Shown here in pieces: positions 18,251 through 58,935 of a stretch of DNA of 64,000 bases. The notes below the pieces were generated by a model that was not told the DNA's origin, searched no databases, and saw only the letters and a list, made by a program, of their open reading frames with translations. The translations under genes and the position numbers were made by a program. Source of the DNA: Candidatus Parvarchaeota archaeon. Lineage in GTDB: Archaea; Nanobdellota; Nanobdellia; JAAOXT01. The first letter of the stretch is position 1, and each line of letters opens with the position of its first letter. Where the stretch lies: positions 14,184-78,183 of the forward strand of contig JAFCDO010000004.1 in the NCBI GenBank assembly GCA_017609605.1, in the 5' to 3' direction.

Positions 18251-18284
18251 CTTTTAATATCCATTCTTTTGTTTTGTTATATTC

Positions 18285-37746: not shown

Positions 37747-37773
37747 AACATTTACAACTTTTTAATCTTCATT

Positions 37774-37857: not shown

Positions 37858-37895
37858 TAAAACATTTAACTCACCCTCTCCATTAATTTTGAATA

Positions 37896-39992: not shown

Positions 39993-40104
39993 GCTCTTTT
40001 CTTTGTTCTGAAATGTTTTAAAGATTTTTCCATGCTCTCTTTTTAAGAGCTCGGAAAAAGGTTGTCCGTAAGCCTTATTAGTTCGTTGACCCTGATATTA
40101 TTGC

Positions 40105-40776: not shown

Positions 40777-40793
40777 AAAACAGTTCTTTTTTT

Positions 40794-41810: not shown

Positions 41811-41888
41811 GCTGTTACGAGAATCAAAGCTTTTTTTTAAGTCTTTCACAAACGTTTAAATCAGTGCACAACCATTTTTTTTTGTTAT

Positions 41889-42740: not shown

Positions 42741-42788
42741 ATCTTGTGTAAAAGTTTTTAAGGATTTGATAAATAGTTATTCCTCATA

Positions 42789-45221
42789 ATGGATGATGAG
42801 TATCAGGTATCTCTTACAGACTTGGTGAGCAAGGTTAAAAAAAATAAAGACTTGTTGTTTTATTCAGGAGTTTTCGCGTTGTTGTGCTTAGCGTTCGTGA
42901 TAAGAACTGCTGACATGAAGAATTTGGGTTCAGAGTTGTTGGCGAGCGACCCGTACGTTTTTTTAAGGTACGCTGAAGACATGGTTGAGAGAGGGGGAAT
43001 CCCGCTTAATGATACTATGAGGTATTACCCTTTTGGTTTTGACACTAGTTTTGAAGCGCCCATGCCTTCTTACGCGATAGTATTGATTTATTCTATCGCC
43101 AATTTCTTCAATCCTGGAGTGGCTTTGTTGTGGGCTGCTCAGATTTATCCTGCAATCTTTAGCGTTTTGGCTTTGTTCGTGTTTGCTTTAATAGCTAAAG
43201 AGTTGACGGGAAGTAAGCGAATTGCTTTGGCTTCGCTTGCTCTTTTGTTATGTCTTCCAGCTTTTTTGTATAGGACTAGCGCGGGTTTCGCTGATAAAGA
43301 GCCTGTTGTGACGTTGTTCTCTTTGCTGATGGTTTACGCTTATGTTAGAGCCTTAGGGTCTGATAAGAAGTATTGGGTTTGGGCTGTTGTTTCAGGAGTG
43401 TTCACGGGTATTGCAGCGTTGTCTGGGGGCCTGTTCATTTTCGCCGTGTTTTCGATATGTGTTTACAACCTGTTCTCAATGTTGTTCTTGAGGATTGGGA
43501 GTAGAAGGATTAAAATCCTGGTTTTATGGTTTATTTCACAACTGCCAGTACTTGTTTTCGCGACTAAGCGTTTCGGCGGGCTGGAGATTTACAAGCACAT
43601 GGCTTTTCAAGCGCCTGCAGCGACGTTGGGAGTCTTAGTGGTTTATTTATTGGTAAAAAGATTGAAGGTGTCTGAAAAGTGGCCTGCGAGCGTGATAACT
43701 TTTTTTGTGCTTTTCGCGCTCGGTTTCACGGTTCTTGCGTTAACCCAGCAGGGAGGGATTGCTTCCGCGCTTTCAAGCATTCACACTCGACTCATGTATC
43801 CGTTGGGTTATAACGCGTTCCAGCAGAGCGTTTCCGAGAACCAGTCCCCTTACGTTTATGACCCTCAAGGCAGGACTGATTGGTGGAGCAATTTCGGATT
43901 CACTTTTCCTTTAATGCTTGCCGGTGCCATAATGCTTTTTTATTTCACTGTGAAGGACGTGAAAAGAAGTAATTTATTGACATTGATGTTTGCAGTCTTC
44001 CTGATATTTTTTATTTTCTCGCGATTCTCTTCAGACCCTGATTTCAGCGCGATAACGAGTTTTTTCACTGACTTCAATCTTTACGCTTTATACGCTTTCT
44101 TAGTTGCTTTGTTATTGTTCGTTCTTTATAATGGAACTAAAGCGGATTATGATAAGATTTCTTGGAAAACTCTTTTCCTTGTCTCGTGGTTTTTGATGAC
44201 AGTCATAGGAGCCAGAGGGGTTATCAGGTTGATGTTTGTGGCAGCCCAGCCGGCGATGATAGTTACCGCTTACTTTTTGATAAAGTTAAGTGATTTGATA
44301 CATAAGAAAACCAAAGACGCTTTGTACACGGCGGTTCCGTTAATAGTTTTAGGAGCTATTTTTATATTCTTTTCTTATCAGACTTACGGTTCAGCAAGTC
44401 ACACGTACCCAACATACAATCATTTCTGGAATGACGCGATGAATTGGGTGCAGGACAACACAAAGTCTTCTGACGTGTTCGTTCACTGGTGGGATTATGG
44501 TTACTGGATACAATCTCGCGGGGACAGGGCGACTGTTCTTGATGGGGGCAACTTTTTTGGACCAGAAATTATTGCTCGCCACTTTTTCACGTCCACTAAC
44601 ATTAGTGAGATAAGAGAAACACTTGATTATTACGGCAACCCAGAGTACTTATTAATAGAATCTAGCGACGTGTTTAAGTTTTATCAAATATCAAGGATTG
44701 GTGGAAGAGAGTCCTGGTTCTCAGGATTAATGTTTTACGGAGATAGAGGGATTAATCCGTCTATAGATAACATGTCCGCCGTCCTGGTTTACAACGCTGG
44801 CGGGGGCATACAGATAAGAGAGGATTATGTTAGGGACGGGAAGTTGTGGGCGAAGGACTCGACTTACATTGTTCAAGCAGTTATTCCTCATAACGAGACG
44901 GATAAACTTGACCCGCAGGTCGTGTTAATCAATAATTATGTTGGTCAGGCTTTGTTCCCGATAAGCTGTGTTTGCAAGTACGGGGCTTGCAGGACTGTTG
45001 ACGAGACGGGGGTTCCAGGGTGTCTGGTGTTGTTTGATGACGCCATGATTTACGCTCCTGACGAGTTGAGGGACATGCTTTTCACAAAGGTTTATTTGCT
45101 GAACAATTTTAGAGGAATAGAAAAAGTTTATGACAATCAAGTTCCATTGAGCGCTAACGCTTTTTATGGAGGGGTAACAAATATAAGAATTTATAGGATA
45201 AATTATACTGAACTAATATGA
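42789..45221 (+). CDS. aglB: Oligosaccharyltransferase AglB (STT3 family)
   Basis: 810 aa with ~13 TM helices and a C-terminal globular domain. Catalytic WWDYG motif at 44487-44501. Confidence 0.9.
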   Translation: MDDEYQVSLTDLVSKVKKNKDLLFYSGVFALLCLAFVIRTADMKNLGSELLASDPYVFLRYAEDMVERGGIPLNDTMRYYPFGFDTSFEAPMPSYAIVLIYSIANFFNPGVALLWAAQIYPAIFSVLALFVFALIAKELTGSKRIALASLALLLCLPAFLYRTSAGFADKEPVVTLFSLLMVYAYVRALGSDKKYWVWAVVSGVFTGIAALSGGLFIFAVFSICVYNLFSMLFLRIGSRRIKILVLWFISQLPVLVFATKRFGGLEIYKHMAFQAPAATLGVLVVYLLVKRLKVSEKWPASVITFFVLFALGFTVLALTQQGGIASALSSIHTRLMYPLGYNAFQQSVSENQSPYVYDPQGRTDWWSNFGFTFPLMLAGAIMLFYFTVKDVKRSNLLTLMFAVFLIFFIFSRFSSDPDFSAITSFFTDFNLYALYAFLVALLLFVLYNGTKADYDKISWKTLFLVSWFLMTVIGARGVIRLMFVAAQPAMIVTAYFLIKLSDLIHKKTKDALYTAVPLIVLGAIFIFFSYQTYGSASHTYPTYNHFWNDAMNWVQDNTKSSDVFVHWWDYGYWIQSRGDRATVLDGGNFFGPEIIARHFFTSTNISEIRETLDYYGNPEYLLIESSDVFKFYQISRIGGRESWFSGLMFYGDRGINPSIDNMSAVLVYNAGGGIQIREDYVRDGKLWAKDSTYIVQAVIPHNETDKLDPQVVLINNYVGQALFPISCVCKYGACRTVDETGVPGCLVLFDDAMIYAPDELRDMLFTKVYLLNNFRGIEKVYDNQVPLSANAFYGGVTNIRIYRINYTELI

Positions 45222-46204
45222 TATTACTGTTGTCACTGCTAATCGCGTTGCTCGGTTCTTTGATTTTGACTAAAGCTTCAATTTCTTACTTGAGAACAAT
45301 TGGTCTTGAGAACAGTGACGTTCACAAGCCCGCTGGAAGCGCGAAGGTGGTGGAAGGGGGTTTGGGCGCGGTTTGGGCTTTTTTCGCTGGGATCATGGTT
45401 TACGTTGGCTTAATCACTTTTCAGGAAGGAGGTCAGGTTTTGAGCATTTTCGCCCCGGTTTGCACGATAATCATGGTGTCTTGGATCGGTTTTATTGATG
45501 ACATAAAAAAGATAAAGAAATGGAAAGGCGGTTTAAAACAGTGGCAAAAACCGTTGCTAACATTGTTAGCGGTTATCCCGTTGATGGCTGTCCGCGCTGG
45601 AAGCACTTCCATGAGCATTCCTTTCATTGGAATAGTGGATTTCGGGTTGCTTTACACTTTCATCTTGATTCCGATAGGCGTGGTCGGGGCTTCTAACGCG
45701 ATAAACATGCTTGAAGGTTTTAACGGGTTGCAAGGCATGGGCGTGATAGTTCTTGTATTCCAGGGAGTTTACGCTTATTGGCATGGCCAAACTCTTGCGG
45801 CAGCTATAGCTTTTTGTTTCGCTGCAGCCCTGTTAGGTTTTCTTAAGTTCAACTGGCGCCCTGCTAAAATTTTTCCAGGAGACACTTTGACTTATGCTGT
45901 TGGCGCAGCCATTGCAAGCGTCGCGATAGTTGGTAACATTGAAAAATTTAGTATTTATTTATTGGCTCCTTGGATTCTGGAGTTCTTCTTGAAATTGAGA
46001 ACCCGTTTTAAGGCAGAGTGTTTTGGCAAGTTACAAAAGGACGGGACTTTAAAAGCGCCGGAAAAGGTAGGTTCTTTAACGCATTTGGTTATGAGGTCTG
46101 GCAGGTGGACTGAGAAGCAAGTTACCATAATACTTATATTCATAGAATTGTTGGTTGGTTTAATCGCTTTAGGGGTGACTTCATGGCAGATTTTACAGTG
46201 GTAA
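45218..46204 (+). CDS. Polyprenyl/dolichyl-phosphate HexNAc-1-phosphate transferase (MraY/WecA/AglH family)
   Basis: Polytopic, with the NAINMLEGFNGL motif. ATGA overlap with aglB. Confidence 0.8.
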   Translation: MILLLSLLIALLGSLILTKASISYLRTIGLENSDVHKPAGSAKVVEGGLGAVWAFFAGIMVYVGLITFQEGGQVLSIFAPVCTIIMVSWIGFIDDIKKIKKWKGGLKQWQKPLLTLLAVIPLMAVRAGSTSMSIPFIGIVDFGLLYTFILIPIGVVGASNAINMLEGFNGLQGMGVIVLVFQGVYAYWHGQTLAAAIAFCFAAALLGFLKFNWRPAKIFPGDTLTYAVGAAIASVAIVGNIEKFSIYLLAPWILEFFLKLRTRFKAECFGKLQKDGTLKAPEKVGSLTHLVMRSGRWTEKQVTIILIFIELLVGLIALGVTSWQILQW

Positions 46205-46878
46205 TACCAACGTTCAACGAGAAGGAAAACATTGACGAATTAGTGAAACATTTTCTTAAAATGTTCGACCAAAAAAAGCTGGGAGGAGAGTTGTTGGTAG
46301 TGGATGATGATTCCCCGGATAAGACTTGGGAGTTAGTGGAGGCTTGGACGAAAAAGGATTCTCGAGTCAAGTTATTGCACAGGAAGGGAAAGAAAGGTTT
46401 GGCAAGCGCGGTCATTGACGGTTTTGAAAAAGCGGGTTCAAAAATTTTGGTGGTGTGCGACGCCGATTTCTCGCATGATTATTCGATTATTCCGACAATG
46501 GTTTCGTTAATCCGTCAAGGGGAAGACATTGTCATCGGCTCTAGGTTCGTTGAAGGAGGAGGGGTTAAAGGATGGCCTGCTTACAGGCTCTTCATAAGTA
46601 AAGGAGCTAGACTACTATCACGAGTGTTTTTAGGGGTGAAGGTTAAGGATCCTATGAGCGGTTTCTTCGCTTTAAAGAAGAGTGTTTTCAAAAAAATAAA
46701 GGATGACATGAGCCCTCAAGGTTACAAAATTCTTTTGGAAATAGTTTTTAGAAGCGGTTCGAACAAGATTAAAGAAGTGCCTTTCGTTTTCAAAGACAGG
46801 GAACTGGGAAGTTCTAAGCTTAGCGGGAAAGTGATGGGCGAATACTTGAAAATGGTTTTAAACTTGGCTTTCAAGTAG
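46183..46878 (+). CDS. GT2 dolichyl-phosphate mannose/hexose synthase-like
   Basis: VVIPTFNEKENI, VVDDDSPDKT, DADFSHD. Confidence 0.8.
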   Translation: MADFTVVIPTFNEKENIDELVKHFLKMFDQKKLGGELLVVDDDSPDKTWELVEAWTKKDSRVKLLHRKGKKGLASAVIDGFEKAGSKILVVCDADFSHDYSIIPTMVSLIRQGEDIVIGSRFVEGGGVKGWPAYRLFISKGARLLSRVFLGVKVKDPMSGFFALKKSVFKKIKDDMSPQGYKILLEIVFRSGSNKIKEVPFVFKDRELGSSKLSGKVMGEYLKMVLNLAFK

Positions 46879-48388
46879 TCATGTTGTAAACCACGAAGTC
46901 GGTTAATGTTTCGTTTTTGTACCCTTTGCGTGAAAGGAAGCCTCCAAAACTGGACAGGACAACACTATCTTCTTTGTTTATGACTATGTAAGTGGGTATC
47001 TGGGAGGCGGTTCGAGTCCATAACTCAAAGTAGTTTTGTTCAGTGTTAGGATCCCAATAAGCATAATAATATGAGTGAGTGAACTTGAACGGGTTGAATT
47101 GTTTCTTGTTTTTCATGAACTCCCATTCCAATAGTTCGGGAGAGTGAGTGCCGTAGTCAGGGCAACCCCAATCCTTGTTAGTGCATATCAGGTAGTAAAC
47201 CATTTTAGGGTCTTCAGCGAAGCTGACAACTTCTTTAACGTTCACGTTTTCCCGCTGAACGAACAAAGGAAGGGTTGAGAGGAGTATCAGGCCAGCGCTT
47301 AGAACTATTACCGCGTTAAAAAATTTCTTGTCAAGTTTTTCCAGAAAATTGGCGAACAATATGAAAAGGAACGGAACTGCAGGTAGCGTGTACCTCAGGT
47401 CTTTGTTGTCGATGAAAGTTGAGACTAGGTAAACGATTATTATGAATAGCGCCGCCCTTTCCAGGAAAGTGTTGAAGCGCAGAGAAAGTTTGCCTTTCGA
47501 TTTGTGAAATAAACCAAGAATTCCGAGCAGGAATAGCCCGCTTGTCTGCTCGAAAAAGCCTGTTACGTAATACGTCCATCCCGCGGGTTCCTTCCAGTTA
47601 GGATCGTTTTCTATGATTCCTTGGTTCTGACTGTAGTAATGGTAATGGCGAATCATGTCGTTGTCGATGAGCGAGAATTGAAGCCAAGGAAGAGCGATTA
47701 ACAAGCAGAGCGTGAATTGAATCGCGAAGCGGAAAATCATTCCAGAACGAATTCTTTTTTTGACAGCCCACTCGATTATGAAGTAAGCAAAGATGAAAGC
47801 GGATAGGAAGATTATGGAAGTGTATTTTAACATGAACGCTGCGAGCAGGGGGATGGTTCCAAGAAACATTTTTTTGATTCCTTTTTGGTGGAAGAAGTTG
47901 TAGTACCACACTATCATCATCGCTGCAAGCGATGAGTCAACTAAAGGTTCTCTCGCCCACCTGAAAAAGATGGGGGAAAGCGATAAGAGAATTGTTGTTA
48001 ATAGCGACGTTCTATAACCAAATTTTTTTCTCAGAAGCAAGTAGAAAAAGTACAGTCCAACGATGACAAAGATTTGTGTCGCGAGCCTGGAGACCAGTTC
48101 ATTAATCCCAAAAAAAGGGAACAGGATTCCTTCTAGGATTGCGTGGGCAGGGGGGTGGTAAAGCGCTGCCCACCTTATGGGGTACACTTGAGAGTATTGG
48201 TTGTAGAAGTCTGGAAGCGAGATTAGTTCTCCGGAAAGCACGGTTTTGAAGTAGTCAGCGAAGAAAACGCCTGCCGCTGCGTGAACGCTTTCATCCCAGT
48301 TCAAGGAAGGGTTTGTGAGGAAGTTGCAAAGGATTAGGTAAAACACGAAGTAAATTATCAAGAAAAATTTTCTTTTTCCGAGTTGCAT
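46871..48388 (-). CDS. GT-C membrane glycosyltransferase (GT39/ArnT/PMT-like)
   Basis: 505 aa with >10 TM helices and a C-terminal soluble domain. N-terminal loop WDESVHAAAG resembles the PMT_2 acidic loop. Confidence 0.6.
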   Translation of the reverse strand: MQLGKRKFFLIIYFVFYLILCNFLTNPSLNWDESVHAAAGVFFADYFKTVLSGELISLPDFYNQYSQVYPIRWAALYHPPAHAILEGILFPFFGINELVSRLATQIFVIVGLYFFYLLLRKKFGYRTSLLTTILLSLSPIFFRWAREPLVDSSLAAMMIVWYYNFFHQKGIKKMFLGTIPLLAAFMLKYTSIIFLSAFIFAYFIIEWAVKKRIRSGMIFRFAIQFTLCLLIALPWLQFSLIDNDMIRHYHYYSQNQGIIENDPNWKEPAGWTYYVTGFFEQTSGLFLLGILGLFHKSKGKLSLRFNTFLERAALFIIIVYLVSTFIDNKDLRYTLPAVPFLFILFANFLEKLDKKFFNAVIVLSAGLILLSTLPLFVQRENVNVKEVVSFAEDPKMVYYLICTNKDWGCPDYGTHSPELLEWEFMKNKKQFNPFKFTHSYYYAYWDPNTEQNYFELWTRTASQIPTYIVINKEDSVVLSSFGGFLSRKGYKNETLTDFVVYNMTT

Positions 48389-48444
48389 GTTTAATTAATT
48401 AAAGGTTAATATTTTAAATCATATCGGATATAGTCCTTGATATA

Positions 48445-49131
48445 ATGATTAGTGTCGTGCTGCCAGCGCATAACGAGGCCAGGAATCTTGAACGAACAGT
48501 GAAAAAATTGGCTGGTTTTTTAGAAAAAGGTTATGAAATAATTGTTGCTGAGGACGGGAGCACTGACGGGACTGATCGGGTTGCGAGAAGATTGGAGAGA
48601 AAAGGTTTAATAAAATTCATGCATTCTGACGAGCGGTTGGGGAGGGGCAAAGCGTTGTCCGCAGCGTTCAAAAAAGCTAGGGGGAACGTTATCGTTTACA
48701 TGGATGTTGATTTAGCAACGCAGTTATCGTCTCTCAAACAATTAATCAATGAAGTGCGGGGAGGAGCTGATATAGCGATTGGTTCTCGCTACTGTAAGGG
48801 GTCTGATGCTAAAAGAACTTTTTCGCGGTTGTTGGCGAGCAAGGCTTACAACTTGTTGGTTTTCGTTTTGTTCGGGTTAAAGCTCAGCGATATGCAGTGC
48901 GGTTTCAAAGCGTTTAAGAAAGATTCTCTGATGAAAATGTTGTGTGACGTGAAGGACACGCACTGGTTTTGGGACACTGAATTGCTCATAAGGGCTAGCA
49001 GGAAGGGGTATAAGATAGTTGAGGTACCTGTTAGGTGGCGTGAGGGTGAGTCAACGACTGTCAACGTTTTAAAAGATTCGTTGGACATGGGATCCAATCT
49101 TTTCAAGTTGAAGTTGAGAGGCGTAAAATAA
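48445..49131 (+). CDS. GT2 dolichyl-phosphate glycosyltransferase
   Basis: VVLPAHNEARNL, EDGSTDGT, DVDLAT. Confidence 0.8.
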   Translation: MISVVLPAHNEARNLERTVKKLAGFLEKGYEIIVAEDGSTDGTDRVARRLERKGLIKFMHSDERLGRGKALSAAFKKARGNVIVYMDVDLATQLSSLKQLINEVRGGADIAIGSRYCKGSDAKRTFSRLLASKAYNLLVFVLFGLKLSDMQCGFKAFKKDSLMKMLCDVKDTHWFWDTELLIRASRKGYKIVEVPVRWREGESTTVNVLKDSLDMGSNLFKLKLRGVK

Positions 49132-49162
49132 TTTAATGTTTGAAGGGAGGGATTAAGTGGGC

Positions 49163-49405
49163 ATGCAAGAAAGAATAAGGAGTTTGTTACTTGATGGGGA
49201 GACGTCTTTGAAAGATTTGTGCAGAAGAACTGGTTTTGAGAAGAAGAAGGTTAAAAAAGTTTTGAGAAAGGTTGGTGCCGTGAAGGTTAAACGGGACGGC
49301 GTAACTCGTTATCATCTGGTTAAAAGAAAGGGTTTTACTTTAAGAATTTCTTTAGCCAGGATAAAAAACTTTTTTGAAGTTAACAATTTTGTTAAGGTAA
49401 AATGA
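49163..49405 (+). CDS. Small basic protein, possibly winged-helix
   Basis: ~80 aa. SD GGGAGGGA upstream of ATG 49163. Its 3' end lies inside the 85-bp direct repeat. Confidence 0.4.
   Translation: MQERIRSLLLDGETSLKDLCRRTGFEKKKVKKVLRKVGAVKVKRDGVTRYHLVKRKGFTLRISLARIKNFFEVNNFVKVK
49314..49398 (+). repeat. 85-bp perfect direct repeat, copy 1
   Basis: ATCTGGTTAAAAGAAAGGGTTTTACTTTAAGAATTTCTTTAGCCAGGATAAAAAACTTTTTTGAAGTTAACAATTTTGTTAAGGT is identical to 51481-51565. Confidence 0.95.
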
Positions 49406-51471
49406 AGTTAAAAATAAAAATGCCAGTTAACAAAAAGCATGTTTTACTACTAACATTCTTATTAGGACTTTTCATTGTTTTAAGAGTTCAAGGTTTTAGA
49501 CCTGATAATTCGGTTCCAAAACACATTGATTTTGGAGTTCACTTGCATAGGGTTCTTTTTCTGCAAAGGTATGGGTTCACTTTTTGGGACCCTTACGTGG
49601 CCGCGGGCTACCCTATCTTTCGTTACAGTAGCGTACTACCATGGGCTTTGACAGCGAGTTTGGCAAGTTTTTATGGAACGGTTCTTGGCTTTAAAGTGAT
49701 GCAAGTATTTCTTGTTGGGCTTATCTATATGTTCTTTTTTCTTTTTTGCAGAAAATATATTAAAAATAATTTAAGCATTATGGTTGCGCTATTGTTCTTC
49801 GCAGTCATTCAGAGACAAACAAGTTTTCCTCACGATGTTTTCTCAGATTTTTTAATGCACAGAAGTTTTCAATTCGTTTTCACACTCATTTTTCTTTACT
49901 TTTTTTTGGATAAGAAAAGGTTCGGCGTAAAACAAATAATTTTGTTGGGGTTATTATTAGCGGCTAGTTTTATGTCTCATAACCTGCAAGGAATAATGCT
50001 TCTAAAATTAGTTTTCATATTCTTGATTGCACGATTTTTCTTAAGCAAAAAGTTGATTCAAGGATCAACATTTCTTTTTGGGGTTTTCGTCGTGTTCTTT
50101 CTGGTGACCGGAGTGGTTCTCGTTCCAATGTTTCTTGAATCTGGTTTGATGAACATGCCTTTTAATGAACCTTACCTCCGTAATTGTGCTAAATCCTTAC
50201 AAGCATCTTTTCAGGATAATCTTAGGAGCCAGATTCAAAACTTGTCATTGAACTTAACGTTATTGAGCGCTAACGCGCAAACAATTTTGTTTTTATTTGT
50301 TTTAGGATTCATTTTTTTGAATTATAAGAGGATGAAGGAGTTAAGAACGATTTTGATTTTTATAGGGTTTATCGTTCTGGCAAATCTTTTATGGAGTGTT
50401 GGCATGACTTTAGCTCCAGAAGACATTGTAACTTATTTGTCTGTTCTTATTCCTTTGGACAGTAAGATTGTATACTTTTTCTTACCCATATTGCTTGTTG
50501 CTTCGTTCAATGCTTGCAAGTCTAATTGGAAATACATTTTTGCATTGAGTATTCTGGTAGCAGTCATAGGCAATTCTTTTTTGCAGGTTGACAAAATGTT
50601 TTTGTGGAGAGATTTTAATGTTGGGTCTGAATTGGAATCTGAGATATCCACAATATATTCTTATTTGAAGGATTATGAAAGGGTCGCTCTTTTCCCATCT
50701 CTTGGTTTTTTTTCAAAACTCCGCAACATTTACTTGGGCGGTCCTTTGAATGGTTGCGAATCTTATTTTTCGCTTGTGAACAATGTTAGCATAATAAACT
50801 TTCATCACGCGCCCTCTGACCCAAAATTTGATGTTTACACAGGGAAAGTCCAGAACCCTTTTATTAGTTATACTGAGAGTTTTTGTGATATAGAACCAAA
50901 CATAGCTAATTTCTCTGCAAAACCTTTCTCACTAGCAGGAAAGGTTGCTTATATGATGAACATATCAGAATTCAATAACATGGTGAATGCAGGAAATATT
51001 CAAGCAGTTGTGCTTAATCCTGTTTACAAACCGTTTGTGGATTTTTTCTTTTCCAATCAAGAGTTCAAATTAGTTAGGCAGATTAAAATTAATGCAACAA
51101 ATATTGGTAACACGTATTTGATCTTTGAAAAAGTTCCAAAGCCTAGTTTGCTTAAGTGCGGTTCAAGAGGAAATTATTCTATTCAAGACATAAGTCCAGA
51201 CATAACCAGAATATCATTTGATAACGTGACTAAAGGAGATAACTGTGAATTATCAATAACTTATCATCCATCATTAAATATGCAGATAGACGGTAAGCCA
51301 ATCGCTTTTTCAAGAACCAATTATGGATTCATAAGTTTTGATGCTCCTGCCGGTGACGGAGTTATAGAATTGAGTCTTGGGCATTCTTATGAAAAAATTC
51401 TTGCTTGGGTTTCTTTAATCTCTCTAGCAATTCTATTGTTTATCCTTTTTAGAACCCAAAGTGAAAAGTAA
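49402..51471 (+). CDS. Large polytopic membrane protein with C-terminal extracytoplasmic domain (GT-C-like candidate)
   Basis: 689 aa with ~12 TM helices, a ~250-aa soluble region and a terminal TM helix. Visibly more AT-rich than its neighbours. Start overlaps the upstream stop (ATGA). Confidence 0.55.
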   Translation: MKLKIKMPVNKKHVLLLTFLLGLFIVLRVQGFRPDNSVPKHIDFGVHLHRVLFLQRYGFTFWDPYVAAGYPIFRYSSVLPWALTASLASFYGTVLGFKVMQVFLVGLIYMFFFLFCRKYIKNNLSIMVALLFFAVIQRQTSFPHDVFSDFLMHRSFQFVFTLIFLYFFLDKKRFGVKQIILLGLLLAASFMSHNLQGIMLLKLVFIFLIARFFLSKKLIQGSTFLFGVFVVFFLVTGVVLVPMFLESGLMNMPFNEPYLRNCAKSLQASFQDNLRSQIQNLSLNLTLLSANAQTILFLFVLGFIFLNYKRMKELRTILIFIGFIVLANLLWSVGMTLAPEDIVTYLSVLIPLDSKIVYFFLPILLVASFNACKSNWKYIFALSILVAVIGNSFLQVDKMFLWRDFNVGSELESEISTIYSYLKDYERVALFPSLGFFSKLRNIYLGGPLNGCESYFSLVNNVSIINFHHAPSDPKFDVYTGKVQNPFISYTESFCDIEPNIANFSAKPFSLAGKVAYMMNISEFNNMVNAGNIQAVVLNPVYKPFVDFFFSNQEFKLVRQIKINATNIGNTYLIFEKVPKPSLLKCGSRGNYSIQDISPDITRISFDNVTKGDNCELSITYHPSLNMQIDGKPIAFSRTNYGFISFDAPAGDGVIELSLGHSYEKILAWVSLISLAILLFILFRTQSEK

Positions 51472-51480
51472 TTTATTATT

Positions 51481-51565
51481 ATCTGGTTAAAAGAAAGGGT
51501 TTTACTTTAAGAATTTCTTTAGCCAGGATAAAAAACTTTTTTGAAGTTAACAATTTTGTTAAGGT
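51481..51565 (+). repeat. 85-bp perfect direct repeat, copy 2
   Basis: Identical to 49314-49398. Continues in frame to ...VKVR-stop (TAA 51570-51572). Confidence 0.95.
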
Positions 51566-51580
51566 GAGGTAAAAAGAAAT

Positions 51581-52573
51581 TTATTTTTCTATTTTTGCAG
51601 GGTTTATGATTGGCAGTAATAAGGCTCCGACCAGTATTGTCACGTACAGGGTTGCGAACCTGAACAGAATTGAGATGCCTGTTCCAACGTCACCGGATAT
51701 TCCTTGATACGTGAACAACATGATTAAAGCACCTTCAGCTATTCCTAATCCTCCAGGGGTTAGTGGCAGCGCGGTTATTAGGGCGGTGAGTATTGCTAGG
51801 AATCCTAGGAAGTAGAAGTTTAGGGTTATCCCGAAGGCTTGGACGACGAACGCTAGAGACACTATTTCCAGCATCCAAATGGTTACTGTAAGAACGAATA
51901 TGTTAAAAAGTTTTTTTTTGTTCTTGAATATTCTGAATCCTTGCTGGAATTTTTCCCACGCGTGTTCAAACTTTTCTGAAAACCTGGACAGCAGGGGAAG
52001 CGAGAAAACTGATTTCATGAACTTTTTTGCAAAAGAAGGTTTCCAGAGCATTAGGGTTAAGAAAAACGAGCCTGCGATGACGAATAGTAAAGACGTGTTT
52101 AAGGCGCTGGTGATAAGGGGTTGCGTTATTTTAGCGGAGTAGACGAAGAAAAAGGATAAAATGATTATTATCACTAAGTCGAAGAATCTTTCAAGCAGTA
52201 TTAATGCAATGATTTTTGAACGGGACACGTCAAGCTTTTTGGCGGACCAGATTCGGTACGCTTCACCGAATTTCGACGGGCTGATGCTGTTAAAAAACCA
52301 TGTGAAGCAAATAATTTTGAATAAGGGTGAAAACCTGATTTTATAGCCTTGAGCTGATAACAAGGTTTTCCATCTAATGGTTCTGAGAGGATATGTTAGA
52401 AAGAAAGCGAATAAGGCTAAACCGTAATACATTGGGTTTATCGTCAAAATTTTTTCTAAAACAAGTCCTAAATCGATTTTGCTGAACACTAGCCAGAGAA
52501 TTATCACGGATAGGATTAGCCCGAGCAAAACCCTTTTGATGGGGAACTTTTTTATGTCAGAAGATTTTTTCAT
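51581..52573 (-). CDS. UPF0104 / lysyl-PG-synthase-TM-like protein (flippase-like domain)
   Basis: 330 aa with 8 TM helices. KIDLGLVLEKI...PLRTIRWKTLL pattern. Confidence 0.6.
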   Translation of the reverse strand: MKKSSDIKKFPIKRVLLGLILSVIILWLVFSKIDLGLVLEKILTINPMYYGLALFAFFLTYPLRTIRWKTLLSAQGYKIRFSPLFKIICFTWFFNSISPSKFGEAYRIWSAKKLDVSRSKIIALILLERFFDLVIIIILSFFFVYSAKITQPLITSALNTSLLFVIAGSFFLTLMLWKPSFAKKFMKSVFSLPLLSRFSEKFEHAWEKFQQGFRIFKNKKKLFNIFVLTVTIWMLEIVSLAFVVQAFGITLNFYFLGFLAILTALITALPLTPGGLGIAEGALIMLFTYQGISGDVGTGISILFRFATLYVTILVGALLLPIINPAKIEK

Positions 52574-52623
52574 TAGTATGTTTATCAGAAGGTTTTTAAA
52601 ATTTAAAAAGTTTTCATGTTTTG

Positions 52624-53298
52624 ATGATGATAAGCTTCTTAATCCCCGCTTATAATGAGGAAAAAAGGATTGTTAAAACGCTCAAACGAATTATTAGCTT
52701 TGCAGAAAAATTTTGTAAGAAATATGAGGTAATAGTGATTTGTGATGGAAATGACGATACTGCTAAAAGAGCAAGGTCTTTCAAAAAAGTCAAGGTTTTG
52801 GGGTTTAAGACGCGTTTGGGTAAAGGAGGAGCTCTTGTTAAGGGTTTTGAGGCGTCTCGCGGCGAGGCAATAGTTTTTTTGGATGCTGACTTGAGCACGC
52901 CTCCCAAATATGTTAAGAAACTTGTTGGCGCCCTGGATTCCAGTGACGTCGCTATTGGTTCAAGGTACTTGAAGAATTCTAGGATAAACATTCCTTTTAA
53001 GAGGTTAATCGCTTCCAGAGGTTTCAACTTTTTAGTCAGGTTGTTCACTGGTTTGAACGTGAACGACACGCAGTCGGGTTTTAAAGCTTTTAAGAGAAGT
53101 GCTTTAGAATCAGTGTTTCCTCTGCGAGTGACAGGTTTTTCTTTTGACGTTGAACTGCTTAAGAAGTTGAAGGGAAAGGGTTTTAGCATGAAAGAGGTTC
53201 CTGTCGAATGGGTTCACGACCCTGACTCGAAAATGACTTATTCTAAGGCTTTAGCCATGTTTCGCGATTTATTGCGCATTGTTGTATATGATGAGTAA
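52624..53298 (+). CDS. GT2 dolichyl-phosphate glycosyltransferase
   Basis: LIPAYNEEKRI, CDGNDDT, DADLSTP. ATG at 52624; the track's TTG is 3 nt upstream. Confidence 0.8.
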   Translation: MMISFLIPAYNEEKRIVKTLKRIISFAEKFCKKYEVIVICDGNDDTAKRARSFKKVKVLGFKTRLGKGGALVKGFEASRGEAIVFLDADLSTPPKYVKKLVGALDSSDVAIGSRYLKNSRINIPFKRLIASRGFNFLVRLFTGLNVNDTQSGFKAFKRSALESVFPLRVTGFSFDVELLKKLKGKGFSMKEVPVEWVHDPDSKMTYSKALAMFRDLLRIVVYDE

Positions 53299-54714
53299 GG
53301 GAGATATTCTGTCTTGGTATGATTGAGTGTACGTTTTTGCAACGCTAAGGTTGAGGGTGTAGGCGTATTCTGGGTGGGTTTCGAAAACGCTCACCACGAC
53401 GAACTTGACGCGTTCGTCTTTTAGTAAGCTATCTAGTTCTTCTAAGGTTTCGGGAAAGTTGATGGTTGTTCTTTCACTGTAGAAAGTGTTTTGAGGGATG
53501 GACGCGCTCACGACGACCTGGCCGGGCAACGAGTTTTGTTTAATCCATTCTCCTGCCTGGCTTACTTGCGCGTAAGAAGGTCCTTTTGAGGTTATCAATG
53601 AGTGCCCGTAGCTTAGGTTGGAGTAGAATACTATTGCTAGGCAGGCGATGACCACTATTTTTCGGGTCTGCTTGTCTGCAAAGAGTTGTCCGATTTGTTT
53701 TATTCCTAGTCCTGTTAGCAGGAAGAAGTAGGGTAGTACGTACATCATGAACCTGTCTTCTTTGTGCTGGATGAGTGAGAAAGCCAGGAAAAAAGTGGCT
53801 ATCACTGCCAGGAAGAAAAACACTTTTTTCTTTTTGACTTGTTTTAGGGATGCCGCCAGGCCTAGTAGTGTTAGTAGAAGAGTGGGGGATACGAGCAGGC
53901 TTCCTAGGAACCCGAATCCCGGGATCATCGTGGTTAACTCTAATAATTCTCCCATGAGGTGAGGCATGCCTGCGAAGAAGTACCAGAAGGGTTCAACTCC
54001 TGTTCCAGGTCCTGCCACGTTGAACGCGAAGAACTCTTGAATTGATTCCAATGGGTTGCCGTAAACTAGAACGTCGTACACGGGAAGCATCATGAAGAAG
54101 CCGAGAGCGAATAAGATCCACGAGTAGTTTTTGATTTTTCTTTCTTTGTTCAGTAATTGATGCAGGAGTAATGGGAACGCGACCACTATTGCGGCGAACC
54201 TGATGATTGTGGCAAGAGCTATTGACGCACCCATCAGTAAAGGGTAGTGTTTGTTCTCATCTTTTTTTAAGAAGAAGAGTACTGCAAGCATGGCGAGCGC
54301 TGTTGAAGGGATTCCTGTGAGAACGCGGACGCCGTAAAAGTTGAACATCCACGATACCGCGACCATTGATGAGCCGATGAGGGCTACGTCCCTGTTAAAA
54401 ACGATTTTGCCAATCTCGTAGGTTAGGAATACGATGCTTGTTGCGAAACCTATTCCTATGAGCTTGGCCATGAATTCGTTGCCCAGCGAAGGTAGAAGCA
54501 TTAACGGGAATATGAAGGTTCTGCCAGCCCACCACCCCGTGTCGGGGGTGCCGTACAACCAGTTCTTGGCTTTGACAAGATAAGTGGATTCATCCCACCA
54601 TAACGCTTGATTGGTGTTGATGTAGAAAAGCTTGACAACTACTGTGAGGATTAGGATGCCTATGAGGAGACCGTTTTTTTCGAATAGTTTTTTCAACTTT
54701 TTTTGAGATATCAT
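53269..54714 (-). CDS. GT-C membrane glycosyltransferase (GT39/ArnT-like)
   Basis: ~480 aa, polytopic, with the WWDESTY loop motif near the N-terminus. Start set at ATG 54714, which has a TATA ~35 nt upstream. Confidence 0.6.
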   Translation of the reverse strand: MISQKKLKKLFEKNGLLIGILILTVVVKLFYINTNQALWWDESTYLVKAKNWLYGTPDTGWWAGRTFIFPLMLLPSLGNEFMAKLIGIGFATSIVFLTYEIGKIVFNRDVALIGSSMVAVSWMFNFYGVRVLTGIPSTALAMLAVLFFLKKDENKHYPLLMGASIALATIIRFAAIVVAFPLLLHQLLNKERKIKNYSWILFALGFFMMLPVYDVLVYGNPLESIQEFFAFNVAGPGTGVEPFWYFFAGMPHLMGELLELTTMIPGFGFLGSLLVSPTLLLTLLGLAASLKQVKKKKVFFFLAVIATFFLAFSLIQHKEDRFMMYVLPYFFLLTGLGIKQIGQLFADKQTRKIVVIACLAIVFYSNLSYGHSLITSKGPSYAQVSQAGEWIKQNSLPGQVVVSASIPQNTFYSERTTINFPETLEELDSLLKDERVKFVVVSVFETHPEYAYTLNLSVAKTYTQSYQDRISPLLIIYNNAQ

Positions 54715-54764
54715 ATTTAAATCACATTCTTGCAACCAATATATTTTAACTTTATTGCTGAGAG

Positions 54765-55247
54765 CTACCGATTTCTCCCAATAATAATATTTAATTTGCT
54801 TCTGATTTTGTTTATTTTATTTTCATCTAATTTTAAAATGATTGACTTGCATTTTACAAAAAGTTCAGGGGCTTTTTTAACCATGTTATGGAACTGCTTA
54901 TCTGGGACAGCCCGGTTCACGTAGTACTGCGAGTCTATTCTTGATTTGAGAGAATCCTCTAAGAAATCGATTTCATTTTCGCTGAAAAACTCGTTTAGGT
55001 AATTCTTGGCAAATTGTAATGTACAAGAGTGGATTCCGCATTTCACCCCGATTTTCATGAGAATAGAGTAAAGAGAGAAATACATGGTGTAATACGCAGT
55101 CGATATCTTCCATTCTTTAATCTTGTTAATTCTTATCGACTTTAGAGAGTTTTCTGCTTTTTTTATATAAGCTTCAGCAAGATTCGAATTCGGTTCAACC
55201 AGACTGATTCCATCATTTTGCTGTAAGCACCAATCCATCTTATTCAT
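54765..55247 (-). CDS. HEPN-domain protein (toxin-like partner of the upstream nucleotidyltransferase)
   Basis: 160 aa, all-helical pattern (AEAYIKKAENSL...AYYTMYFSLYSILMKIG...SRIDSQYY). 8-nt overlap with the MNT gene. Confidence 0.6.
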   Translation of the reverse strand: MNKMDWCLQQNDGISLVEPNSNLAEAYIKKAENSLKSIRINKIKEWKISTAYYTMYFSLYSILMKIGVKCGIHSCTLQFAKNYLNEFFSENEIDFLEDSLKSRIDSQYYVNRAVPDKQFHNMVKKAPELFVKCKSIILKLDENKINKIRSKLNIIIGRNR

Positions 55248-55830
55248 TTCTCAACACCATTTTTACTAATTCCTCAGCATTCAAAAATATTATGTGGTCT
55301 TTCAAAACCTCTTTTATCAAAATATCATTCTTAATGTTTTCTTCAAAGATACTCGTAGGGTAACTCTTAATACTTATCTCAACCCCATACATACTCGAAA
55401 TTTTTTTGACACGTTTTTTATCATAACTTCCTACAACGAAGATGTCAAGGTCAGATTCTTCTTTCTCAAGAGCTTTTGCATAACTGCCAAACACGAATCC
55501 AATCCCGTTTATAAAAGGAGTTATCTTAGCCAAAATTTCTCTTATTAAATCATGATTCTCCAAAAAAATTATTTTTTTGTATTGTTCAACAAAAATTAAG
55601 TAATCTTCGGCAATATCACTTTTTTTGATTTTATATACTTTGATTTTGCCTTTTGTTGATGATTCGAGAACAATTTTGTTCTCCAAATCGTTTAAAATAA
55701 GTTGGGCAGTCCTTGGACTTATTTTTAGAATTTTCTGAACTTCCCTTATATAATATTCTTTATCAAACCCTTTTGTGAACAAAGAAAGCACTTGCAAATG
55801 ATTCTCAGTTATGTTTAATTTTTCATACAT
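55240..55830 (-). CDS. wHTH + minimal nucleotidyltransferase (MNT) protein
   Basis: C-terminal GFVFGSYAKALEKEESDLDIFVV matches the GSxxxG...SDxD NTase motif. N-terminal HTH (IREVQKILKISPRTAQLILNDLE). Confidence 0.7.
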   Translation of the reverse strand: MYEKLNITENHLQVLSLFTKGFDKEYYIREVQKILKISPRTAQLILNDLENKIVLESSTKGKIKVYKIKKSDIAEDYLIFVEQYKKIIFLENHDLIREILAKITPFINGIGFVFGSYAKALEKEESDLDIFVVGSYDKKRVKKISSMYGVEISIKSYPTSIFEENIKNDILIKEVLKDHIIFLNAEELVKMVLRNE

Positions 55831-55941
55831 ACGTATTATTTATAATACAGTTAGTATTTAATTGTTCTGGCTCAAGCATTTTACGCCAACGAGATTTAAG
55901 TGAAGTTTTTATTCCTCGTTTATGATGGGTGGAGCCCTGCT

Positions 55942-56811
55942 TTATTTGATTCTTGCTGTTTCCGCTTTCTCCCATATTTGTTTCAAATCCTTTTTTTTGA
56001 TGTTTAAATCAATGAAGGATAAAGCCCAGGCGTAAGTTCTCGCGGTTATGAGTGCAAAGTACCAGACCAGTTCTTTTAAGTTTTTCGCGTAACCAAAACC
56101 TTTTGTGAAGTGAGAGGATTCTTTGAGAAAACTTCTGGTTCTGTGTCCGGGGAACCATTTTTGAATTTGGTGGTAGCCTGCCATGGTTCTTCTTTTTTGC
56201 TTAACCCAGTCTTTAAAGTTGTCCGGGTACCTGACTTTGACCCAAGCGTCCGGTTCGTAAACGATTTTATAGCCTTTTTCTCGTATCATGTGAGATATGA
56301 CTGCGTCGTCAGCCAGACTTTGTTCTGGAATCTTTTTTATGACGTTGCGGATGGCGTAGAACTCGCCAGAGCATATGAGAAAACCTTTTTTTGACAATCT
56401 TTTTTTGTTCTCGTGAGCGCCTGCTTCGCTTAGAAAGTTGGCCCACCATCCCAACATATCGTTTTTAGGGTTTTCGCAAACCACTCTTGAGCTCGCCGCC
56501 CCGACTTTCGAGTTCTTGAAGTGTTTGAGCAGTTTTGGGATAGAGTTTTTCTGGATGATCACGTCCCCGTCAGTTAGGATGATTATGTTTCCTTTGGCTT
56601 TTTTGAAAGAAAGGTTCAGGGCGTGGGGTTTGCCTTTGCCAGGGTCGTTCACTATTTTGACGCGCTCAAATTTTTTTGCTTGTTGGATGGTCGGTTCGTC
56701 CGGTGCTACCACGATTAGCTCGTCGTTTTTTTCTATTTGGCTGAGTATTGCTTTGATTGCGCGGCCAATGGTTTTCTCTTCTTTAAAAGCTGTTATTATC
56801 ACTGTGTTCAT
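55942..56811 (-). CDS. GT2 glycosyltransferase
   Basis: VIITAFKEEKTIGRAI and TDGDVII motifs. Start set at MNTVIIT, giving a 4-nt overlap with the upstream stop. Confidence 0.7.
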   Translation of the reverse strand: MNTVIITAFKEEKTIGRAIKAILSQIEKNDELIVVAPDEPTIQQAKKFERVKIVNDPGKGKPHALNLSFKKAKGNIIILTDGDVIIQKNSIPKLLKHFKNSKVGAASSRVVCENPKNDMLGWWANFLSEAGAHENKKRLSKKGFLICSGEFYAIRNVIKKIPEQSLADDAVISHMIREKGYKIVYEPDAWVKVRYPDNFKDWVKQKRRTMAGYHQIQKWFPGHRTRSFLKESSHFTKGFGYAKNLKELVWYFALITARTYAWALSFIDLNIKKKDLKQIWEKAETARIK

Positions 56812-57737
56812 TTTGTTTTCAGGAAGGAGATTATTGATAGGAGGGAGCGCAAGAACACTATGCAAGTGTAGGATAAAGTTTCTTTGATGTGTTTGAAGTC
56901 CAGGTAGAACTTGTAAGTGCTGTACGAGAAGTACGCTGTCAGCGCTAATAGTAGTGGCAGTCTAAAAACTGGGAGGATTATTAACGGGGTTGCTAATAAT
57001 AGTCCTCCTCTTAACCCGTTTATCAATAATAGTTTTGCAGCCATTTTTTTGCGACCGGTTTTCAGTAAAGTTTTTATTCCTTTGCCAAACCAGTTTGCTT
57101 GTTTTAGGTAGAGTTGCAGGGTGTCAGGGTCTTTGTGGTAAAGCACTATTGATGGGTCGTGGACAAGTTTGTATCCTTTGTTCAGGAAGTTTTGTGTTAG
57201 CAGGCCGTCTTCAAAGTAGAAAATGTTTTTCGGGTAGCCGCCCAGTTTTTTGAACACTTCTTTTTTTATGCAGAAAATGAATGCGGGTGTTTCATTAACA
57301 ACCGTTTTTTCGTATTTTTTGGAGTAAACCCTGTTTCTGAGGTCAAGAGCTTTAGCAATGATGGTTTTTGGTTTGTAACCGTAAACGTTCCACGTCACGG
57401 CGTCAGCACCGTATTTTTTTAGGTTTTGGTCAATTTTTTTTAAGCAATTTTTTGGAGCTATCTGGTCCGCGTCCACGAACACGAGCACTTCTCCTTTGGC
57501 TTTTTTGACGCCTTGGGTTCTGGCGAACGCTGCGCTGTGTCCTTGCTTGAAGTTGACGAGTTTTAGGGTTTCGTGTTTTTTTTGGCGGTTTTCAACGATT
57601 TTTTGCGTCCCGTCTTTGGACCCGTCGTTCACCACGATCACTTCATAATCTTTGAATGATTGTTTTAGGCATGAGTCTAGGCAGTCAGGAAGGTCTGTTT
57701 CTTCGTTGTGAGCTGGTATTATTATGCTGAACCTCAT
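56808..57737 (-). CDS. GT2 glycosyltransferase with C-terminal TM helices
   Basis: FSIIIPAHNEE, VIVVNDGSKDGT, FVDADQ. Confidence 0.8.
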   Translation of the reverse strand: MRFSIIIPAHNEETDLPDCLDSCLKQSFKDYEVIVVNDGSKDGTQKIVENRQKKHETLKLVNFKQGHSAAFARTQGVKKAKGEVLVFVDADQIAPKNCLKKIDQNLKKYGADAVTWNVYGYKPKTIIAKALDLRNRVYSKKYEKTVVNETPAFIFCIKKEVFKKLGGYPKNIFYFEDGLLTQNFLNKGYKLVHDPSIVLYHKDPDTLQLYLKQANWFGKGIKTLLKTGRKKMAAKLLLINGLRGGLLLATPLIILPVFRLPLLLALTAYFSYSTYKFYLDFKHIKETLSYTCIVFLRSLLSIISFLKTK

Positions 57738-58771
57738 ACTTTTTTGTACACCTCTAACGTTTTTTTAGCAACTTTTTGTGGGCTGAATTCATTCACTATT
57801 TTTGTTCCGTTTTTGATCAAGCGATTTTTGAGTTGAGGGTCTTGTATTAGCATTTGAATTTTTTGAGAAACATCTTCCACATTGTTTTCTGAGTAGAGTA
57901 GGGATTTTCCGAAGACTGTGGGTGTTGCTCCTCTGTCAAGTGCTATGCAGGGGGTTCCTGACGCGAGGGCTTGGGCGAAAACTATTCCAAAGGATTCTTT
58001 GCTTGACAGGTTGACGAGCATGTCCGCTGTTGAGAGAGTGTTTAACAATTTTTTTTCGCTTACAAAACCTAGAAAGCGGATTCTGGTGTCTCCTCCACCA
58101 ATTTTTTTGAGTCTTTGCTCGTCCGGGCCTGATCCGATGATGCTTAATTGTATGCCGTTGAGTTTTTTCACTGCTTGAATCAACGTGTCAACGTTTTTGT
58201 ACGCGTCCAATCGTCCAATGAATAGGACGTGGTTGTTCCACGTTTTTTTCTTTATTTTTGAAAACTTTTTTAGTTCTAACGGGTTTGGAATGGTGGTCAT
58301 GTTGTTGTTAAATTTTTTGAGGATTTTTTTTTCGTAATCCGAGGAAGTTATCACTTGAGAGGCTTTTTTGATTGCTGGTTGGCCGAATAACAGGTCAAAC
58401 ATTTTTCTTGTGAACAAGTTTTTTTTCCCTTTTTCGTGAAAGTGGGTGGTGAACACGTATTTGTCAACGCTTTTTGAAACGATGAAGGGTTGGAAAGTTG
58501 AGTAGTTTTGTGCGTGGACAATGTCTGCTTTGAAGTCCTTTATTTTTTGAATCATTTCTGGCGTGTAGCCCAACCCTTTATACGGGACTCGTTCAATGGT
58601 TATTTTTCCTTCTTTGCTAAGACCTGGTTTTTCGAAGCCCGCGGGAGTTTTTGTAGTGCAAAGAATTCGAACATCATGTTTTTTTGAGAATTCTTTTGAG
58701 ATTAGGGCAACGTGTTTTTCAACCCCTCCAAGCTCGGGGTGATAACTCAAGCAGACTTGCATTATTCGCAT
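57734..58771 (-). CDS. GT4 (GT-B fold) glycosyltransferase
   Basis: MRIMQVCLSYHPELGGVEKHV N-terminus. C-terminal ...ESFGIVFAQALASGTPCIA (E-x7-E region). TATA AAATATTTAAAAAAG lies ~35 nt upstream of ATG 58771. Confidence 0.8.
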   Translation of the reverse strand: MRIMQVCLSYHPELGGVEKHVALISKEFSKKHDVRILCTTKTPAGFEKPGLSKEGKITIERVPYKGLGYTPEMIQKIKDFKADIVHAQNYSTFQPFIVSKSVDKYVFTTHFHEKGKKNLFTRKMFDLLFGQPAIKKASQVITSSDYEKKILKKFNNNMTTIPNPLELKKFSKIKKKTWNNHVLFIGRLDAYKNVDTLIQAVKKLNGIQLSIIGSGPDEQRLKKIGGGDTRIRFLGFVSEKKLLNTLSTADMLVNLSSKESFGIVFAQALASGTPCIALDRGATPTVFGKSLLYSENNVEDVSQKIQMLIQDPQLKNRLIKNGTKIVNEFSPQKVAKKTLEVYKKV

Positions 58772-58900
58772 AGACGTGTTAGGTGTTGGAACTTTTTTAA
58801 ATATTTGGTTTAGACAGCAGATTTGAATTATACGGCACACATTCTTTTTTAGAGCACTGAAAAAATCAGAGGAAAGCGAGTAAAAAAAGGTGTTCTAGAA

Positions 58901-58910
58901 AAACTTATAA
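58901..58910 (+). promoter_or_regulatory. BRE/TATA-like element AAACTTATAA
   Basis: Begins 35 nt upstream of ATG 58936. Same decamer and spacing as at 10306. Confidence 0.5.
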
Positions 58911-58935
58911 GAACATAGAGCGTTTATTCTTATTC

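Follow-up and report, generated by a model that had tools for sequence, protein, structure and literature searches.

A single-gene unit between hybrid direct repeats in the glycosylation island of a DPANN archaeon, probably inserted by homologous recombination

When a non-replicating plasmid or a gapped vector integrates by the Campbell or ends-in route, direct repeats bracket the insert, the repeats are hybrid, and the target is kept. Precise loss through the repeats then yields an empty site. Here we describe a locus with these same features in a 64,000-nt stretch of contig JAFCDO010000004.1 (positions 14,184 to 78,183 of the forward strand) from the Candidatus Parvarchaeota archaeon assembly GCA_017609605.1. 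This whole stretch is called the window, and positions are counted from its first letter. In the window, which comes from a tiny symbiotic member of the Nanoarchaeota, a 689-aa membrane-protein gene lies in a glycosylation island between two copies of the 3' end of a small resident gene, and relatives carry the empty site. We take the locus to hold a real, integrase-less, homology-mediated insertion of a single gene that is polymorphic within its species. The mechanism is a known kind of event and not a new one, but it is unusually cleanly documented here in a DPANN archaeon. The locus differs from the Campbell and ends-in examples in that it is a natural event in an uncultivated DPANN archaeon, with ~100 nt of homology, a single gene as cargo and no vector backbone, and in that it is known from assembled sequence.

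Integrase-encoding elements at the 3' ends of tRNA or protein genes, together with their integrase-less satellites (cis-mobilizable elements), have in common with this locus the hybrid att-like repeats, the gene-restoring tail and the identical core. Here, however, neither an integrase nor a transposase was found in the unit, which holds one open reading frame (ORF), or in the window ORFs scanned against Pfam (nearly all of those of at least 100 aa, but not a 2077-aa ORF at 31513-37746). The initial annotation, made from the letters of the window, had likewise noted no integrase or transposase. In addition, the arms of the repeats are diverged alleles, and the unit is only 2.17 kb long with one gene. 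An integron gene cassette also consists of one ORF and a site of ~100 nt with little other noncoding DNA, oriented so that an upstream gene is able to drive expression; such cassettes have reportedly been found in Archaea too. The present locus differs in having no attC hairpin, integron integrase, attI or array, and its site is a fragment of a host protein gene. In type VI secretion system (T6SS) effector-immunity, Rhs and contact-dependent inhibition (CDI) loci, 3' ends are displaced with orphan remnants, and the far end is thought to be illegitimate (PMC5361080). In those loci, as here, the incoming 3' copy recombines by homology, without a dedicated recombinase, and the old end is pushed downstream as a remnant, but they vary the toxin domain of the same gene, whereas here the target gene is altered in just one residue, the gene gained is unrelated to it, and homology is present at both junctions. 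Flexible surface-glycan islands are exchanged by homologous recombination, through double-crossover replacement in conserved flanks that leaves single-nucleotide polymorphism (SNP) peaks (PMC4033161). They share with our locus the strain-level variation of an island through homologous recombination and a changed cell surface as the likely pay-off, and differ from it in that here a single gene is added, the target is duplicated, and no SNP peak is seen.

Genomes are tiny in DPANN archaea, which rely on contact with host cells; their surface glycans are therefore probably important for attachment and for escape from viruses. To our knowledge, the acquisition of new glycan enzymes by DPANN archaea is poorly documented. 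The present locus is a rare one at which such an event can be reconstructed base by base from a filled site, empty sites and crossover junctions. It suggests that ~100 nt of homology, without a dedicated recombinase, may suffice to add a ready-to-express gene to a glycosylation island, and that such additions can be polymorphic within a species.

The insertion site is made up of the following parts, where L001 and L006 are two contigs with an empty site described below.

49157..49405, + strand: small resident gene, 82 aa, target of the insertion (ORF list; the ATG at 49163 gives 80 aa)
49301..49313, + strand: left edge of copy 1, resident type, GTAACTCGTTATC, coding for V T R Y H (0/13 differences from L001 and L006)
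49314..49398, + strand: core of copy 1, attL-like (85-bp perfect repeat)
49399..49405, + strand: right edge of copy 1, foreign type, AAAATGA (edge alignment)
49402..51471, + strand: inserted polytopic membrane protein, 689 aa, predicted GT-C fold (ORF list, structure model, Foldseek)
51468..51480, + strand: left edge of copy 2, foreign type, GTAATTTATTATT, V I Y Y Y in the frame of the small gene (allele alignment)
51481..51565, + strand: core of copy 2, attR-like, within a promoterless, start-less remnant of the small gene
51566..51572, + strand: right edge of copy 2, resident type, GAGGTAA, the end of a Val codon, an Arg codon and a stop (matches the VKVR-TAA ends of relatives)

The two 85-bp cores, 49314-49398 and 51481-51565, are identical without a mismatch, and their starts are 2167 bp apart. 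Used as a search pattern, the core matched twice in the window, again only twice when 3 mismatches were allowed, and not at all in 100 dinucleotide-preserving shuffles. No further copy of the core is present in the 64-kb window. The homology to the small gene covers ~104 nt, the core being flanked by short, diverged homologous edges. On the left, the homology extends beyond the core for 13 nt (49301-49313 and 51468-51480) with 4 mismatches; on the right, it extends for 7 nt up to the stop codon. When the last two core bases are included, the right edges read GTAAAATGA in copy 1 and GTGAGGTAA in copy 2, with another 4 mismatches, and all 8 of the mismatches between the edges of the two copies are transitions. 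The boundary between core and edge is sharp: 4 of the 5 G/C sites in the 13-nt left edge have changed between the copies, compared with 0 of 22 in the core. Neither terminal inverted repeats at the ends of the insert nor an attC-like hairpin was found (the DNA fold of 49295-49410 has a z score of -1.14, and 29 of 200 shuffles fold as well). Just one local 7-bp inverted repeat, TTAACAA/TTGTTAA, was present in the repeat, and an Rfam search of 48000-53000 returned nothing above noise.

Copy 1 forms the 3' end of the 82-aa gene, which now ends in VKVK-TGA, and this TGA overlaps the start of the 689-aa ORF as ATGA. Copy 2 keeps the frame of the small gene to VKVR-TAA (51570-51572), 8 nt from the stop codon of a convergent 330-aa gene. 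Copy 2 lacks a start codon and has a stop codon shortly before it, which makes it a remnant of the gene. The perfect 85-bp repeat described in the initial annotation is thus borne out by the exact pair and the empty shuffles, and the two gene ends described there by the ORFs and the frame of copy 2. The small gene itself has an ordinary GC content in its 5' part (0.424) and a low one, 0.267, in its 3' part. Its product had no record in an exact look-up and gave two distant matches only in a metagenome scan; a weak match to PF21476 (PF0610-like_N; E 0.008, short of the curated threshold) suggests a possible winged-helix protein.

A genome-collection scan with the small protein retrieved contig JAAOXT010000001.1 of a Nanoarchaeota metagenome-assembled genome (L001). 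This contig aligns to the window over ~20 kb, at nucleotide identities of 97.2% (window positions 39147-49399), 96.0% (51476-54718) and 96.0% (55918-58917). It has the gene order of the window with one repeat copy (L001 10153-10243 aligns to both copies of the window), no 689-aa gene, and a small gene that ends in VKVR-TAA 8 nt before the convergent gene. An identity of ~96-97% places the window and L001 in one species, and we read the insert as a presence/absence polymorphism within that species. A Logan contig (L006) is also empty; its small protein is identical to that of L001 across 80 common residues, and the two contigs are identical in the stretch aligned around the insertion site. An ENA contig (L005) is empty as well, with a small protein that is 81% identical, and so are two more distant loci (L009 and L010), in which the small protein is 44% and the flippase-like protein of the convergent gene 69% identical. 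The small-gene homologues in L001, L006, L005 and L009 all converge on an LPG_synthase_TM gene. The empty site that the initial annotation had predicted, with one copy, a VKVR-TAA end and the convergent gene directly downstream, therefore exists in L001, L006 and L005. Because the outgroups are empty and the 689-aa gene is compositionally foreign, gain of the insert is more parsimonious than loss. The contig name of L001, k83_46380, suggests assembly with MEGAHIT at a largest k of 83, which presumably could not traverse an exact repeat of 85 bp within one unitig. The uninterrupted empty site in L001 would then mean that a branch with the insert was absent or minor in that sample.

The alleles of these relatives reveal the origin of the repeat edges. 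The left edge of copy 2 shares 12 of its 13 positions with the L005 allele, GTAACTTATTATT (V T Y Y Y), but just 9 with the RYH type seen in copy 1, L001 and L006; the small protein of L009 has T-Y-Y-F at this position. Among the 127,974 13-mers on both strands of the window, the left edge of copy 2 alone matches the L005 allele at as many as 12 positions. This count, together with the mismatches being all transitions, rules out a chance match as the source of the 13-nt left extension. The TAA stop of the 689-aa gene (51469-51471) falls within the small-gene-derived GTAAYT of this edge. On the right side, where L001 reads GTACGGTAA and L005 reads GTAAGGTAA, all differences among the four sequences compared are transitions. 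The AAAATGA edge of copy 1 differs from every resident end, and from it come the final codon and the stop codon now used by the small gene as well as the start codon (ATG) of the 689-aa gene. The small genes of L001, L006 and L005 end in VKVR-TAA followed by the same 8-nt spacer and the convergent gene, and by this comparison the GAGGTAA edge of copy 2 is read as the original end of the small gene.

Between the L005 and window alleles of the small gene there are 15 transitions and 2 transversions. Because the edge mismatches are all transitions, as are most differences between true alleles, the edges are diverged homologues and not unrelated sequence. The allele comparison identifies the repeats as reciprocal hybrids: copy 1 is resident on the left and foreign on the right, and copy 2 is foreign on the left and resident on the right. 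Such edges are the product expected if a single reciprocal crossover took place with the gene tail of another allele. Within the core, copy 1 differs from L001 at four synonymous positions (49316, 49324, 49327 and 49396), and copy 2 has the same states at all four. Three of these substitutions (49316, 49327 and 49396) are common to both copies and absent from L001 and L005, and the L005 allele differs from the window core at 8 of 85 positions.

The inserted gene has a GC content of 0.344 and a third-codon-position GC content (GC3) of 0.336, corresponding to z scores of -4.5 and -3.1 against 35 other window ORFs of at least 200 aa (GC 0.422 ± 0.017, GC3 0.463 ± 0.041), and its GC content is the lowest among the long genes of the window. 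The composition of membrane proteins is not the cause, since the other membrane glycosyltransferases of the island have ordinary GC contents. By its composition, together with the remoteness of its homologues and the absence of paralogues described below, the 689-aa gene is judged to be foreign. The AT-rich character of the insert given in the initial annotation is reflected in these values, and its proposal of a GT-C-like protein agrees with the searches that follow.

An exact look-up of the 689-aa protein gave no record, the protein itself was the sole match in a word-indexed search of 5.8 billion proteins, and Pfam gave no match at E ≤ 0.01. A HMMER search of 1.84 billion representatives produced 35 matches, the best at 27% identity. 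Eight of 10 remote homologues matched PF10131 (PTPS_related) and/or PF09586 (YfhO); the link to curated GT-C families is transitive only, through these homologues, as the protein has no Pfam match of its own. An AlphaFold2 model built with a 27-sequence alignment was usable (predicted local distance difference test score [pLDDT] of 72, predicted TM-score [pTM] of 0.78), while a single-sequence model (pLDDT 42) was discarded. The model has ~14 long helices up to residue 400, a strand-rich alpha/beta domain and a final helix at 662-688, which agrees with the GT-C layout of an N-terminal polytopic membrane domain and a subsequent extracytoplasmic one. In a Foldseek search of the PDB, the top 17 matches were all GT-C proteins (DPY19, AftD, STT3, AglB, PglB, AftA and ArnT), with E values down to 6e-6 (DPY19, TM-score 0.47) and TM-scores of ~0.45-0.5; in a profile search of PDB sequences, AftD was the best match (E 0.007). 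The first loop region is conserved in the aligned homologues (D43 in 23/27, H47 in 24/27, D35 in 14/27; also W62 and G69), and the position of D43 fits the catalytic or metal-binding loop Asp of GT-C enzymes, the loop topology and the role of the residue being putative. The model and the matches predict that the 689-aa protein is a GT-C-fold glycosyltransferase distantly related to the PF10131 and YfhO families.

GT-C enzymes take a sugar from a polyprenyl- or dolichyl-phosphate donor at the outer face of the membrane. By analogy, the 689-aa enzyme would most likely transfer a lipid-linked sugar to a glycan or protein on the outer face. Genes for dolichol-phosphate-type family 2 glycosyltransferases (GT2), a GT4 enzyme and AglB lie near it and provide a donor context. 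No paralogue was found in the window or, by tblastn, in L001 or L008 (a further locus, described below), and no relative of the protein was found in viral contigs; neither the insertion region nor the protein had a match among plasmids or phages.

The closest homologue, P0007 (27% identity), belongs to a type IV pilus-like locus (L007 7733-10500), where it follows T2SSE and T2SSF genes and is flanked by two small genes whose N-termini are pilin-like and resemble each other. This context hints that members of the 689-aa protein family may glycosylate pilins. A bracketing repeat at P0007 was considered and rejected; the 35-nt flanking similarity there corresponds to the N-termini of the two pilin-like genes. 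L007 and L008 come from the same sequencing run.

We consider it probable that a single-gene unit of ~2.1 kb was inserted into the last 35 codons of the small gene by reciprocal homologous recombination. In the incoming DNA, both ends of the 689-aa gene would have been linked to a ~104-nt 3' tail of another allele of the small gene, either in a circle with one copy of the tail (Campbell) or in a linear molecule with a split copy (ends-in/gap repair). A crossover inside the common sequence would then have produced two hybrid repeats around the 689-aa gene. The small gene is intact, with K in place of R as its last residue, and its old end is left as a dead remnant. Through the ATGA overlap, the 689-aa gene may be cotranscribed and translationally coupled with the small gene; its ATG is preceded, at a distance of 4 nt, by a weak AAGGT motif, and other genes of the window have similar motifs. 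As there is no element-encoded recombinase, the host recombination system would have carried out the exchange. The same repeats would allow precise loss, which could keep the gene polymorphic, and the added GT-C enzyme would alter the cell surface. In this model the edges of the foreign donor would be GTAATTTATTATT followed by the core and the core followed by AAAATGAAG, and a free circle or tandem copy would show the junction AGTGAAAAGTAATTTATTATT - core - AAAATGAAGTTAAAAATA. The Campbell-type or homology-mediated insertion put forward in the initial annotation gains support from the hybrid make-up of the repeat copies.

Several points weigh against the insertion by reciprocal recombination. 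The two cores are identical, including the three lineage-specific substitutions, whereas 8 of 22 edge positions are mismatched; an allele with this degree of divergence should differ in the core as well, so an extra homogenizing step is needed. The core may have been made uniform by gap repair from the chromosome in an ends-in event, in which both repeats receive the resident core, by later gene conversion between the repeats or by repeated excision and reintegration in the population. The direction of the change, gain or loss, and its date rest on parsimony and composition, and the linkage of insert and flanks is known from assembly alone. When an import tract next to the insert was looked for, the SNP density was ordinary and patchy throughout. 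No donor, circular form or second cassette at the site turned up in metagenome, viral, plasmid and phage scans, and the invariant 32 nt of the core had no match in viral contigs.

An extension of the homologous insertion would make the small-gene tail a homing site for integrase-less "homology cassettes" that cycle between circle and chromosome by host recombination. Each cassette would comprise one gene and ~100 nt of a host-gene tail, and per cycle it would gain the host core and keep its own edges. If so, a perfect core with diverged edges would be the footprint of repeated cycling, and such cassettes, as an integrase-free counterpart of the integron, could carry surface-glycan enzymes from one DPANN strain to another. 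With only one such cassette and no intermediate found, there is as yet no evidence for a recurrent system, and we regard this extension as quite unlikely.

The identity of the cores could also reflect an old duplication under concerted evolution. On that account, the gene was inserted in the common ancestor of the window and L001, which had the YYY allele; copy 1 later changed to RYH, gene conversion held the 85-bp core identical, and the lineage of L001 and L006 lost the insert precisely, through recombination between the repeats. The YYY/YYF type does seem ancestral from the outgroups L005 and L009, so that the left edge of copy 2 could be a fossil resident allele, a single pop-out deletion would cover both L001 and L006, and gene conversion between short repeats could leave a core/edge boundary as sharp as the one observed. 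However, conversion would have had to continue over 3-4% divergence, in which ~4 core differences would be expected and 0 are seen, and copy 1 would need to have changed three times within two neighboring codons. The right edge of copy 1 must still be foreign or heavily altered, and repeats that recombine often enough to stay identical should often delete the insert. The core facts fit both accounts; we rank the old duplication below the homologous insertion and hold it to be possible but doubtful. Site-specific integration of a nonautonomous circle, with the core or part of it as an att site and a tyrosine or serine recombinase supplied from another place in the genome or by a helper element, would account for the attL/attR-like hybrids, for a target at a gene 3' end with its frame restored and for an identical core between different arms. 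We judge it improbable. The unit and the window ORFs scanned against Pfam encode no recombinase, the core does not recur elsewhere in the window, its invariant 32 nt are unmatched in viral contigs, and because the arms are alleles of the same gene, simple homology explains them without a dedicated enzyme.

An assembly artefact, in which a free circle of ~2.17 kb or a second strain with the same 85 bp was threaded into the chromosomal contig, is conceivable insofar as a graph loop from core through the 689-aa gene back to core could be resolved either way and only one assembly of the genome is available (the same 79,678-bp contig is in NCBI and JGI/IMG). Even so, the junctions of the 689-aa gene end with the core and of the core with the 689-aa gene start must exist in real molecules, a 2.17-kb circle without a replication gene would not persist, and the edges differ between the copies, unlike those of a simple duplication error. 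Both the ATGA overlap, which preserves the frame, and the restored small gene resemble an integrated state that has been selected, and an artefact is highly improbable. GTAA is found both where the 689-aa gene ends and in the small gene, and might have served as microhomology in a one-ended, homology-facilitated illegitimate recombination with its homologous anchor on the left and the microhomology joint on the right; incoming modules are proposed to displace the 3' ends of genes in T6SS, Rhs and CDI loci (PMC5361080). The right junction, with its 12/13 allele match and the 85-bp core, is far beyond microhomology. The other nonhomologous route, a transposon with a long target duplication, lacks a transposase and terminal inverted repeats, and a target duplication of 85-104 bp is far longer than those known for transposons. 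A one-ended or nonhomologous insertion is thus hardly credible.

The insertion by homologous recombination, as favored here, is flanked by two resident genes.

48445..49131, + strand: GT2 glycosyltransferase, 228 aa, resident left flank (Pfam PF00535, E 2e-29)
51581..52573, - strand: LPG_synthase_TM/flippase-like gene, 330 aa, resident right flank (PF03706, E 8e-57)

The 228-aa GT2 gene, upstream of the small gene, is the same gene as that at 9291-9977 of L001, and a homologue is also found upstream of the small gene in L009. The 330-aa protein has a 98% identical counterpart in L001 that is named "flippase-like domain-containing protein" at its source. In L009 (641-2485) and L010, the GT2 gene and a 76-aa small-gene homologue lie beside the flippase-like gene. 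In L008 (7215-12335), the PMT_2, GT2 and small-gene block is absent, and GT2-GT4-AglB directly adjoins the flippase-like gene. The missing block in L008 indicates that the corner of the island by the 3' end of the flippase-like gene varies across lineages.

The window as a whole is core archaeal chromosome, with genes for Orc1/Cdc6, both PolD subunits, aRF1, aIF5A, a proteasome subunit, FEN1 and tRNA synthetases. The glycosylation island extends from ~42.8 kb to 62.6 kb and includes AglB/STT3, GT4, several GT2, two GT-C (of the PMT_2 and GT22 types), LPG_synthase_TM, GT1 and sugar-nucleotide enzymes. A second AT-rich insertion relative to L001 (54719-55917, GC 0.31) replaces 20 bp of an intergenic spacer (L001 13396-13415) and contains two genes.

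54765-55247, - strand: HEPN gene
55240-55830, - strand: nucleotidyltransferase gene (MNT type) with an N-terminal extension, overlapping the HEPN gene

The HEPN/MNT pair looks like a toxin-antitoxin module. No direct repeats flank 54719-55917, and this second insertion therefore came by another route than the 689-aa gene, so that the mechanism proposed for the latter is not general for the island.

Three short, strongly AT-rich ORFs elsewhere in the window (10341-10646, 17695-18264 and 37896-38426) have GC3 contents of 0.21-0.32 and no or only a faint Pfam match. One of them has a weak match to a Card1-like endonuclease, and one lies just downstream of tRNA-Ser (37773-37858), where no att-like repeats were found. 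The 2077-aa ORF (31513-37746) has an unusually high second-position GC content of 0.49 and an internal 157-nt repeat (32731-32887 and 33775-33931, 78% identical), and it probably encodes a repetitive surface protein. In the 1025-aa NrdD (3129-6206), a LAGLIDADG_3 match at residues 479-544 lies between two NRDD stretches, and this insert is probably an intein with a homing endonuclease.

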